IMG/VR virus record: IMGVR_UViG_3300037264_008088
DNA length: 22,130 nt
Source: a virus
Reading direction: 5' to 3' (one strand)
Positions 18,594-20,088 of this stretch are shown here, piece by piece (within the stretch, counting starts at the first letter, position 1; each line of letters starts with the position of its first letter). The translations under genes were made by a program, and so were the position numbers. Under the pieces are notes generated by a model. That model was not told where the DNA came from. It searched no databases and saw nothing but the letters and a program-made list of their open reading frames with translations.

Positions 18594-18821
18594 CTACTTC
18601 GACGGGCGCAGCCTCGACGATGAAAGCCCGCCCTGTTTCCAAGGCGATGGCATTTGAAGCTTAAACGATCGCGACCAAAACTGGAATTCATTTAGAATCT
18701 CAATAACGTGTTCCTTGTCTGCGCCATCTTCAATCGCGGATTTGACGACTTGGTGAATGCAACGATATTCGGCGCTGCCAATATCGTCTGGATCCTTCAG
18801 TGTTTTCAGCCATTTACGCAT
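18594..18821 (-). CDS. Small protein B of the low-GC cassette (75 aa). Its last 11 codons (LSSSRLRPSK) come from the duplicated 3' end of the neighbouring gene
   Basis: ATG 18819..18821 preceded by GGAGGTG. Overlaps gene A by 16 nt in another frame. Confidence 0.4.
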   Translation of the reverse strand: MRKWLKTLKDPDDIGSAEYRCIHQVVKSAIEDGADKEHVIEILNEFQFWSRSFKLQMPSPWKQGGLSSSRLRPSK

Positions 18822-18952
18822 TGACACTTTACACCTCCGTCGATCTTGTCTTCCCAGAGTTTGTCGAAGTCCGATTCACCGTCCTCGGTCAGCAGTTCTG
18901 GATCCTCAACTGCGTTGTCCAAATCGAAGACTTCAACGTCTAATGTCATCAT
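18806..18952 (-). CDS. Small strongly acidic protein A of the low-GC cassette (48 aa, MMTLDVEVFDLDNAVEDPELLTEDGESDFDKLWEDKIDGGVKCQCVNG)
   Basis: Tandem ATG ATG at 18947..18952. Roughly one third of the encoded residues are Asp/Glu. Immediately preceded by a 12-bp tandem repeat. Confidence 0.4.
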   Translation of the reverse strand: MMTLDVEVFDLDNAVEDPELLTEDGESDFDKLWEDKIDGGVKCQCVNG

Positions 18953-18993
18953 TGATTCCGTTATTGATTCCGTTGCCCATTTGCCCGCCGCTC

Positions 18994-20088
18994 CTACCTG
19001 GACGGATGCAGCCTCAACGACGAGAGCATTGGAACCTCGACGGAGATCGGGACCAGGAAGTCCACGTTCTCGGCCTGTATGTCCCCGTCCGCGTTGCGGA
19101 GGAGGCCCCTGCCGAGCCCGCCGCTGGTCCAGCACCCCCACGCAGGGGACACGTACCTGATCCCCTCGCGCAGCATGAAGAAGTATCCGTCCTCCCATAC
19201 CTCGCGCGACGCCTGGACGGGGGTCGCGGGCTTGCCCTTCTCCCTGAACATCCACTTCCTGCCGTCAGTCAGCGAGTACCCGGCAGACCCCTCTGCCCCG
19301 GGATCCTTCGGGAACCCTGACGGGGTCACGCCATGAAGCAACTCGGAAGAGGCGTCGGCCATCTGCTGGCCCGTGTATGGAGGCGCGACGCCCTTCTCCC
19401 TGAGGTGCTTGGCGATCTCCATCCCCTTCTCGATCCTCTCCACGTACCGCTGGTGGCGGATGTCCTTGACTTCCTTCTCGTGATGGCTCTCTGGGTACTT
19501 CGTCCGCCTGGTGCTCCCGGCAGGCGGCTCAAACCCCATGATGTCAAGGTGCTCGCGGATGCCGCCTTCCACAATCGGCTCCCCGCCACCGGTCGGCTGG
19601 ACCTTGTAGAAGTCCTCCGAGCCGTCCCCCCAGACGTAGGCGTCCTGCCCGAAGTAGTATGCCACAGCCTTGGCGTCGCCCTCGCTCATCTGCGGGACGA
19701 AGAGGCTCTTCTCCTGGATGCCGAACCAAACCCCCCTGCCAGGCACGAAGCCATGCAGGGCGAGGCGCGGAGGCTCGCCGTTTATGTCGGGCTGGTCAAG
19801 CGCTGGACCAGGGTCTTGCCCGGCCAGAATCTTCTTCAGTTGGGCCATCCTGGCCTTGTTCTGCTGCGGCGTCAGGCCAGCCCTCTCCGCCGAGATGGCC
19901 GCGAACGGCCCCCGTTGCAGGTGCCGCAGGACGCTCCCGAACCCGGACGCCTCGACGGCCATCCTGGAGCGCACGTGGGACGCGACGGCCTCGAAGAGGC
20001 CGGCGTCCCACTCTCCAGTCCCCAACTTGTCGAATCCCATGCTCTCCCTCCAAGGGCGGCCCACTGCTCCATTCGCCACCACCGCCAT
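18994..20088 (-). CDS. Hypothetical protein (364 aa)
   Basis: ATG 20086..20088. Protein-like composition. Its stop abuts the cassette and its C-terminal codons are duplicated at 18594..18627. Confidence 0.65.
   Translation of the reverse strand: MAVVANGAVGRPWRESMGFDKLGTGEWDAGLFEAVASHVRSRMAVEASGFGSVLRHLQRGPFAAISAERAGLTPQQNKARMAQLKKILAGQDPGPALDQPDINGEPPRLALHGFVPGRGVWFGIQEKSLFVPQMSEGDAKAVAYYFGQDAYVWGDGSEDFYKVQPTGGGEPIVEGGIREHLDIMGFEPPAGSTRRTKYPESHHEKEVKDIRHQRYVERIEKGMEIAKHLREKGVAPPYTGQQMADASSELLHGVTPSGFPKDPGAEGSAGYSLTDGRKWMFREKGKPATPVQASREVWEDGYFFMLREGIRYVSPAWGCWTSGGLGRGLLRNADGDIQAENVDFLVPISVEVPMLSSLRLHPSR

Follow-up and report, generated by a model that had tools for sequence, protein, structure and literature searches.

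A low-GC pair of small genes between two copies of a gene junction in metagenomic phage DNA

The repeated junction and the genes between its copies

Here we analysed a stretch of viral DNA of 22,130 nucleotides (nt), the IMG/VR record IMGVR_UViG_3300037264_008088, which is an entire JGI metagenome contig and is called the window throughout this text, and in it a locus at which two small genes, A and B, lie between a gene for a protein of 364 amino acids (aa) and a gene for a protein of 187 aa. Nearly every gene of the window, and every gene of this locus, is read from the minus strand, and the order of the locus is the body of the 364-aa gene, a first junction, A followed by the body of B, a second junction that repeats the first, and the body of the 187-aa gene. 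The features of the locus are the following, in window coordinates and in the order in which they are read.

18994 to 20088, minus strand: the 364-aa gene, called by JGI in a 348-aa version, which ends with tail copy 1 (MLSSLRLHPSR and stop).
18979 to 19027, minus strand: junction repeat copy 1, made of the tail of the 364-aa gene, its stop and 15 nt of intergenic sequence.
18951 to 18974: perfect tandem repeat of 12 base pairs (bp), ATTGATTCCGTT twice (minus-strand reading AACGGAATCAAT twice), with 100% identity between the units, abutting the start codon of A.
18806 to 18952, minus strand: gene A, 48 aa.
18832 to 18838, minus strand: Shine-Dalgarno site of B, GGAGGTG, inside the 3' end of A, 4 nt before the GTG at 18827 and 10 nt before the ATG at 18821.
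18594 to 18827, minus strand: gene B, 77 aa from the GTG.
18594 to 18821, minus strand: gene B from the ATG, 75 aa, the form in which JGI called the gene (P0003).
18628 to 18952, minus strand: low-GC core, foreign by its composition, of about 325 bp, which holds the bodies of A and B (GC about 0.47; GC at third codon positions, GC3, about 0.5).
18579 to 18627, minus strand: junction repeat copy 2, with the relic tail that forms the C-terminus of B, the stops TAG TAG and intergenic sequence ending in GCAAAT.
18560 to 18582, minus strand: diverged period-12 repeat AAATCAGTGGTT / AAATCAGGGG, in the second intergenic region, which is the leader of the 187-aa gene.
17988 to 18551, minus strand: the 187-aa gene, downstream of the insert.

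An earlier note on this DNA had described a direct repeat of 34 nt that takes in the end of the 364-aa gene. Such a repeat does exist, and it is longer: its copies span 49 nt with 73% identity when aligned without gaps (76% over 51 columns with gaps), they start exactly 400 bp apart, and they take in the last 10 codons and the stop of the 364-aa gene together with 15 intergenic nt that end in GCAAAT. Local alignment of the junction region of the 364-aa gene against the kilobase downstream of it yielded a score of 23, which was reached in 0 of 1000 dinucleotide shuffles (mean 10.7, maximum 22), and the E-value of the repeat in a blastn search within the window was 4e-5. The 20-nt consensus of the repeat occurs in the window at these two sites only and could not be matched in IMG/VR; between the copies, no more than 8 nt in a row are identical (GAGGCTGC). 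The 34-nt coding part, in which 27 of 34 positions are identical, comprises 10 full codons, the stop codon and a single base of an 11th codon. The differences between the two tails comprise four at third positions (three of them synonymous) and three at second positions (L/S, H/R and R/K), with none at a first position. As had been seen before, the downstream copy is fused to B, whose residues 68 to 77 (LSSSRLRPSK) are tail copy 2.

Two other explanations of the repeat were tried and rejected. A diversity-generating retroelement is excluded because the seven mismatches are of mixed types and are not adenine-specific; no reverse transcriptase was found among the ten proteins scanned, which cover 13482 to 21934. 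That the repeats form a conserved RNA structure was rejected as well, since their z-scores of 0.09 and 0.24 do not stand out from shuffled controls.

Examination of the two intergenic regions extended the likeness between the junctions. The 12-bp tandem had been noted before the start of A, where it is indeed present; it is not specific to the cassette, for Tandem Repeats Finder reported the diverged period-12 counterpart at 18560 to 18582. The pattern RAATCA-N6-RAATCA, which was picked after the data had been seen and was found in 0 of 100 shuffles, has exactly two minus-strand occurrences in the 22 kb and no others, one in each intergenic region, where it lies within the period-12 repeat. 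Given the counterpart and the motif common to both regions, we take the tandem to belong to the duplicated junction and not to foreign DNA, and this shared motif architecture argues that the duplicated unit was the whole junction of about 80 nt, that is, the terminal codons, the stop and the leader up to the next start. In addition, GAATSAATAACG is found only twice in the window (16101 to 16112 and 18959 to 18970, minus strand), in both cases directly upstream of a start codon, that of a vault-like gene described below and that of A. Two matches were obtained in 0 of 100 shuffles, and the sequence may be a shared leader motif.

In the case of gene A, the description as a 48-aa polypeptide with about one third Asp and Glu proved accurate: 15 of the 48 residues are Asp or Glu (31%), the calculated isoelectric point (pI) is 4.05 and the net charge is about -12.5. 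Its GC at the first, second and third codon positions (0.61, 0.27 and 0.55) is strongly coding-like. We found no Shine-Dalgarno site for A, no homologue among 5.8 billion proteins and no tblastn match in GenBank phages or in any of the loci fetched for this work, and its predicted model, with a predicted local distance difference test (pLDDT) score of 51, is unreliable and unusable for a fold search. A is either a genuine acidic mini-protein or the 3' remnant of a donor gene that stood upstream of B. Its overlap with B, given earlier as 16 nt, has that length when B is read from its ATG and amounts to 22 nt from the GTG.

Composition of the insert and the protein family of gene B

The interval from 18601 to 19000 has a GC content of 0.49 and is the lowest of the 400-bp intervals in the window, whose average is about 0.62. 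It is in synonymous positions that the deficit resides. We compared the GC3 of A and B with that of nine other genes, which ranged from 0.69 to 0.90, and obtained 0.55 for A, 0.54 for B and 0.48 for the body of B, against 0.87 in the 364-aa gene, 0.75 in the 187-aa gene, 0.69 in a 158-aa gene and between 0.75 and 0.90 for the other genes checked. The tail copies behave differently from the bodies of A and B, in that 9 of 10 and 8 of 10 of their third positions are G or C, as in the host genome. Because of this host-like composition the low-GC part is confined to the bodies of A and B (18628 to 18952). The low-GC segment of roughly 365 bp that had been placed between the repeats is thus compositionally foreign by its GC3 over about 325 bp only, and the idea that the cassette brought its own replacement C-terminus as foreign DNA does not agree with the composition of either repeat copy.

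Unlike A, B belongs to a family that can be recognised. A word-indexed search of the 5.8 billion proteins returned only B itself, whereas an exhaustive HMMER scan of 1.84 billion representatives yielded 12 remote homologues (E-values from 8e-7 to 8e-4, identities of 34-46%, lengths of 60-129 aa), all of them encoded on phage-like metagenomic contigs. The alignment, which covers B from residue 3 to about residue 60, has the signature L-x-DPD-x-(V/I)-G-x-x-EYRAI(Y/H) ... EF-x-x-W, in which five residues, P13, E20, Y21, R22 and I24, do not vary. Because the 12 homologues share so clear a signature, we conclude that B is a genuine gene of an old and unannotated family of small proteins. About 15 further loci of the family were collected, L003 to L008 by exact look-up and L004/L005 together with L012 to L021 by pattern scans, and all lie within phage-like runs of small unannotated genes. 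B had no tblastn match in GenBank phages, and profiles of the family gave nothing meaningful against PDB, NCBIfam, PHROGs and Pfam. AlphaFold2 run without an alignment placed three helices in the body of B (core pLDDT 82-87) and left the C-terminal region at low confidence, so that the body is predicted to represent a small helical phage protein family and the tail is predicted to be disordered. A search with this model against BFVD and PDB returned nothing at E < 1.

The family also shows where B should end. Most of its members stop 10-18 residues after the conserved Trp, near residues 60-67 of B, and the best match, P0005, terminates in ...RWKGKG at the point at which B reads ...PWKQGG and then continues with LSSSRLRPSK. 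The family length is about 60-75 aa, and B exceeds it only through these residues. Since most homologues end near residues 60-67, the last ten residues of B are read as a relic of the tail of the 364-aa protein. Concerning that tail, the only homologue found for the 364-aa protein, P0002 (35% identity by BLASTP and 37% in a MAFFT alignment), is encoded on a Logan contig (L002) with a gene context unlike that of the window and ends in ...PDMSSSKTRRT; a basic, Ser-rich tail is therefore native to the 364-aa family. Compared with the end of P0002, the relic on B scores 18 under BLOSUM62 with 4 of 10 identities, and the present tail of the 364-aa protein scores 5 with 2 of 10. The proposal that the downstream copy is the original one is weakly favoured by this likeness, although ten residues cannot settle it. 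Downstream of P0002, at 2379 to 2477 of its contig, we also observed a fragment with a phosphatase-like HCxxGxxR motif (VHCEAGKGRTG), without synteny to the window.

The tail, (M/G)LSS(L/S)RL(H/R)PS(R/K), could alternatively be a functional signal for docking, packaging or turnover that has been kept on B by selection. The motif persists in P0002 despite an overall identity of 35%, the differences between the two copies avoid first codon positions and are mostly at third positions, B reads the relic in its original frame, and the tail is predicted to be disordered. In-frame fusion, however, happens by chance in one case out of three, only 10 codons are available on which to test selection, the other members of the B family lack the motif, and no other protein of the window ends with it. 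We consider this explanation extremely unlikely.

Composition within the family bears on where B may have come from. Most B homologues in high-GC contigs have a host-like GC3 of 0.7-0.9, which indicates that the family is not intrinsically AT-rich. Low values were found in the window copy (0.54) and in L006 (0.48), L007 (0.51) and L003 (0.60), which are among the better matches of B; this is what would be expected if the window copy had come recently from a phage of lower GC. The genes upstream of the homologues vary: the homologue of L003 follows a gene for a 122-aa protein, that of L004 follows a RadC-like gene and that of L006 a basic fragment. Because these neighbours differ, the pairing of A with B is not a conserved module.

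Two of these loci deserve description in their own right. In L007 (Logan SRR25654127, 22.5 kb) positions 2300 to 2690 form a second low-GC island, at 0.43-0.51 in a context of 0.62-0.72, in which a 60-aa acidic open reading frame (ORF; 27% Asp and Glu, GC 0.45) precedes and overlaps a 60-aa B homologue (GC 0.48). No flanking repeats were found at this island, and homology between its acidic ORF and A was rejected (p = 0.21); the co-occurrence favours A and B as a unit. In L004 (IMG/VR UViG_3300031740_000006, 2531 to 3601) the B-family gene stands between a RadC-like JAB-domain gene, recognised by eye from its HNHPSG motif, and a gene for a very acidic, Cys-rich protein of 128 aa, a neighbourhood that recalls anti-restriction regions.

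Expression, neighbourhood and origin of the insert

The origin and the expression of the insert were considered together with the following features, upstream and downstream of it.

20101 to 20128, minus strand: sigma-70-like promoter TTGACT-16-TAGAAT (10 of 12 consensus positions, with a TG extension), directly upstream of the 364-aa gene.
20132 to 21622, minus strand: full-length cysteinyl-tRNA synthetase gene with catalytic, DALR and anticodon-binding domains, adjoining the 364-aa gene.
16107 to 16781 and 16785 to 17369, minus strand: HNH endonuclease genes, two in tandem, which follow the insert downstream at a distance of 1.2-2.9 kb.

The reading that we favour, and hold to be fairly probable, is that the insert is horizontally acquired DNA that was recombined in at a gene junction and is expressed by read-through. 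We infer the direction and the mechanism of the event as follows. About 325 bp from a phage of lower GC would have recombined between the 364-aa and the 187-aa genes, bringing the complete small gene B preceded by the short acidic ORF A. The event would have duplicated the recipient junction, that is, the last 10 codons, the stop and the intergenic region with its period-12 AATCA motifs, most plausibly while phage genomes were replicating, through copy-choice, unequal recombination or homology-facilitated illegitimate recombination; it is unlikely that a dedicated recombinase took part. In the sequence as it stands, the 364-aa gene is intact, A stands behind a copy of the former leader of the 187-aa gene, and B has lost its own stop, so that its frame continues across the relic tail as far as the old stop and gains ten residues, predicted to be disordered.

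With regard to expression, a consensus scan detected neither promoter nor terminator on the coding strand within 18594 to 19027, and together with the promoter before the 364-aa gene this makes read-through from that gene across A and B into the 187-aa gene the simplest expectation. The insert would thus be transcribed from the sigma-70-like promoter and B translated from its own strong Shine-Dalgarno site within A, while the translation of A is putative. A and B are probably accessory genes, and probably early ones.

One half of this anatomy has been assembled independently. The contig L001 (Logan SRR11849544) corresponds to 16671 to 18830 of the window with 99.86% identity and confirms the right junction, from B through the second tail to the 187-aa gene; its three mismatches all fall in the downstream HNH gene (16732 to 16759). 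L001 ends at 18830, inside the overlap of A and B, perhaps because the population contains a variant branch, perhaps only because coverage was low.

Several points weigh against the acquisition of foreign DNA at a duplicated junction. The left junction, from the 364-aa gene through the first junction to A, is present in this one assembly only. Global alignment of the distal intergenic parts was not significant, and extension of the repeat over the whole intergenic region up to the start codons was therefore rejected and retained only as shared motif architecture. The promoter and terminator calls are those of consensus scans. The repeat copies have diverged by about 25% while the insert is still far from the GC of its host, a combination that fits an old duplication in situ only if composition shifts slowly, and that would equally fit a copy derived from a diverged relative. 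Finally, no relative with an empty site was found among IMG/VR contigs searched with the 364-aa, B and 187-aa proteins, JGI metagenome contigs searched with the alignment of the 364-aa protein, or GenBank phages searched by DNA and by protein. There is no close relative at the DNA level among GenBank phages or IMG/VR contigs, exact-protein look-ups (364-aa protein, P0001, A, P0003, cysteinyl-tRNA synthetase and DUF4326 protein) returned none on record, and the only relatives found were L001, which is nearly identical and carries the insert, and L002, with the 35%-identical homologue in another context. In the lack of an empty site, it is composition and the scar that speak for an insertion, and the word foreign is itself a statement about base composition.

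The repeats could instead be thought to result from a simple local duplication. A 400-bp tandem duplication was rejected and is excluded, for the cassette body does not resemble the initial 320 bp of the 187-aa gene: aligned with the 187-aa region, the body reached a score of 11, and shuffles averaged about 10. More generally, the body is unlike the 187-aa, 364-aa and 158-aa genes in both DNA and protein comparisons. A likeness of A and B to the 187-aa protein that had been seen by eye (KWL...FW spacing, DPxxLL) was rejected at a shuffle p of 0.36-0.41. A related explanation dispenses with horizontal transfer altogether. A and B would be long-resident genes with unusual codon usage, or would have arisen de novo in a degenerate duplicate, and the repeat would have been left behind when the junction was duplicated locally. 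In favour of this, both copies of the repeat have a host-like composition and, at about 25% divergence, are old; the neighbouring 187-aa and 158-aa genes also have a somewhat lower GC3; and A has no homologues. On the other side, the B family is old and widespread, hence B did not arise de novo, its GC3 in other high-GC contigs is 0.7-0.9, and the cassette body does not resemble the segment of the 187-aa gene that a 400-bp tandem duplication would have copied. We regard both the residence of A and B without transfer and, under it, the origin of the repeat as such a leftover as very improbable.

Returning to horizontal acquisition, the earlier note had proposed a discrete mobile cassette, mobilised in trans. 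An integrase or the nearby HNH endonucleases would have directed it to the 364-aa gene, at whose 3' end it would have supplied a replacement C-terminus; the repeats would be comparable to attachment (att) sites. Several observations are compatible with such a cassette: the direct repeats regenerate the 3' end of the target gene, the composition of the insert is foreign, the two HNH genes lie nearby, L007 has a second low-GC island with an acidic ORF and a B homologue, and the end of L001 inside the cassette could correspond to a variant branch of the assembly graph. Nevertheless, the repeats are only 73-76% identical with no exact run beyond 8 nt, both copies are host-like in composition, and no terminal inverted repeats are present. 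The repeats do not look like att sites or target-site duplications of recent date. Neither the repeat, the 12-mer nor the cassette has another copy in the window or in IMG/VR, the search for cassette copies having covered GenBank phages and protein databases as well. At the approximately 15 other loci with B homologues there is no junction-like sequence and there are no flanking repeats, and the acidic ORF of L007 is not detectably homologous to A. The statement that no recombinase is encoded is correct inside the cassette, which has no Pfam or PHROG match, but it leaves out the two HNH endonuclease genes downstream. Taking these results together, a mobile cassette is improbable. The HNH genes are paralogous, with about 76% DNA identity over about 145 nt, and double-strand breaks and recombination could have a local source in them.

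The function of the insert is independent of the route by which it arrived. The proposal that A is a DNA mimic or another anti-defence protein with B as its partner, or that the two form a toxin-antitoxin-like pair, starts from the strong acidity of A (31% Asp and Glu, pI 4.05), and the overlap of A and B and the strong Shine-Dalgarno site of B suggest coupled expression. The gene that opens the operon behind the host-type promoter adds to this. The 364-aa protein and P0002 gave matches below the Pfam threshold, weak and reproducible, to S-adenosylmethionine (S-AdoMet, SAM) lyase (PF23780; E-values of 0.03 and 0.002) and to DUF3293 (0.012 and 0.02; 0.00046 for the isolated domain), in residues 60-150, approximately, of the 364-aa protein (19640 to 19910 of the window) and 60-147 of P0002. 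S-AdoMet lyases are known from phage anti-restriction. The matches suggest that the promoter-proximal gene may encode a SAM-lyase-like N-terminal domain, possibly early and of anti-restriction type, and they make an anti-defence role at the locus conceivable. The B homologue of L004 likewise adjoins a RadC-like gene and acidic proteins. Against this, neither A nor B has a significant match in Pfam, PHROGs, PADLOC, NCBIfam or PDB (the Pfam, PHROG and PADLOC searches used the default E cut-off of 0.001), and the only toxin or antitoxin match, to AbiEii (E = 0.032, 11.5 bits), is at chance level. The model of A is unreliable, the predicted fold of B matches nothing, A has neither a Shine-Dalgarno site nor a homologue, and the upstream partner of the B homologues is not conserved. 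Judged by sequence similarity, the DNA-mimic or antitoxin pair that had been suggested finds no support, and we regard such a role as doubtful.

A bolder proposal combines mobility with function, and we consider it most improbable. The acidic mini-ORF and the gene with the DPD-EYRAI signature would be a two-gene unit without promoter or recombinase that moves between phages and serves anti-defence beside a SAM-lyase-like early gene. Such a unit would land between ORFs, duplicate the junction and borrow a start for A and a stop for B from its recipient, and the island of L007 would be another instance of it.

The remaining genes of the neighbourhood indicate the kind of genome that received the insert. 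The cysteinyl-tRNA synthetase matches phrog_30090 and is therefore phage-borne, and the 187-aa protein matches phrog_11912 and phrog_17232, with homologues of about 27-31% identity in large or jumbo phages of Proteobacteria (Achromobacter, Sinorhizobium, Erwinia, Klebsiella and Caulobacter). A DUF4326 protein is encoded in the neighbourhood as well. Judging from these neighbours, the source looks like a large or jumbo-type phage. Further along the window, an 868-aa protein (13482 to 16088, minus strand) contains a major-vault-protein shoulder (E = 1.7e-24) and vault repeat domains and has no PHROG match. Another direct repeat, of 43 nt (10153 to 10195 and 11178 to 11220; 72% identical, 1025 bp apart), has its copies near the 5' ends of a 246-aa gene and a 207-aa gene, which may be paralogues.

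Comparison with known inserts and mobile elements

Islands and prophages that depend on an integrase can insert into the 3' end of a gene, tRNA genes included, which they regenerate through duplication of the att site. The insert described here resembles them in its flanking direct repeats and in the upstream copy that keeps the target gene intact. It has no integrase, however, it measures about 0.4 kb and not several kb, its repeats are about 75% identical and not nearly identical, and its host is itself a phage genome. In size it comes closer to the ultra-small mobile elements of mycobacteriophages (MPME), which are about 440 bp long, carry short terminal inverted repeats and a single ORF of about 120 aa, and exist in many near-identical copies. 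Both are insertions of less than 500 bp in a high-GC phage genome, but the insert has none of the three features just named for the MPME, in its ends, its ORFs or its copy number.

At the level of the proteins, the small acidic DNA mimics with anti-restriction activity, such as Ocr, ArdA, Arn and p56, are the natural comparison for A, which is also small, strongly acidic and encoded in a probable early operon. A nonetheless has no sequence, profile or reliable structural similarity to them.

In C-terminal or effector displacement arrays of Rhs, contact-dependent inhibition (CDI) and type VI secretion system (T6SS) loci, for which homology-facilitated illegitimate recombination is invoked, a conserved stretch anchors the incoming DNA while its other end is joined illegitimately (PMC5361080). 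The likeness lies in the duplicated fragment of a resident gene and in the displaced relic downstream of it. In those arrays, however, a variable toxin domain follows the conserved anchor, and what is left as relics are immunity genes or the orphaned tips of toxins, whereas here the extreme 3' end of a gene and its intergenic region are duplicated, the relic has become part of a small gene unrelated to it, and nothing points to a toxin with its immunity gene.

The closest resemblance is to the phage moron of Juhala and Hendrix, extra DNA with small accessory genes between two phage genes. Morons are independent transcription units with a promoter and a terminator of their own and a deviant GC content ('The moron comes of age', PMC3594210). 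The insert has the deviant GC (0.49 against about 0.62, and GC3 of about 0.5 against 0.75-0.90), but by consensus scan neither promoter nor terminator of its own, and it shows a duplication of the junction that does not form part of the definition of a moron. Moron-like accessory insert is the nearest label that we can give it.

The locus offers a concrete case of a promoterless small gene slotted into an operon with its neighbours undamaged, and it has led to the delineation of a previously unannotated family of small proteins with the signature DPDxVGxxEYRAI, known so far from uncultivated phage contigs only. Its interest would grow if A or B were found to act in anti-defence. By current thinking, the mosaic genomes of phages are assembled through rare recombination events, illegitimate or homeologous, where one gene meets the next, and the joints are usually erased. 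In the window the scar can still be read, in the duplicated junction, in the relic C-terminus carried by the incoming gene and in a composition that is not yet that of the host. We therefore think that the locus is best read as ordinary phage mosaicism with an unusually legible scar, and not as a new kind of mobile element.

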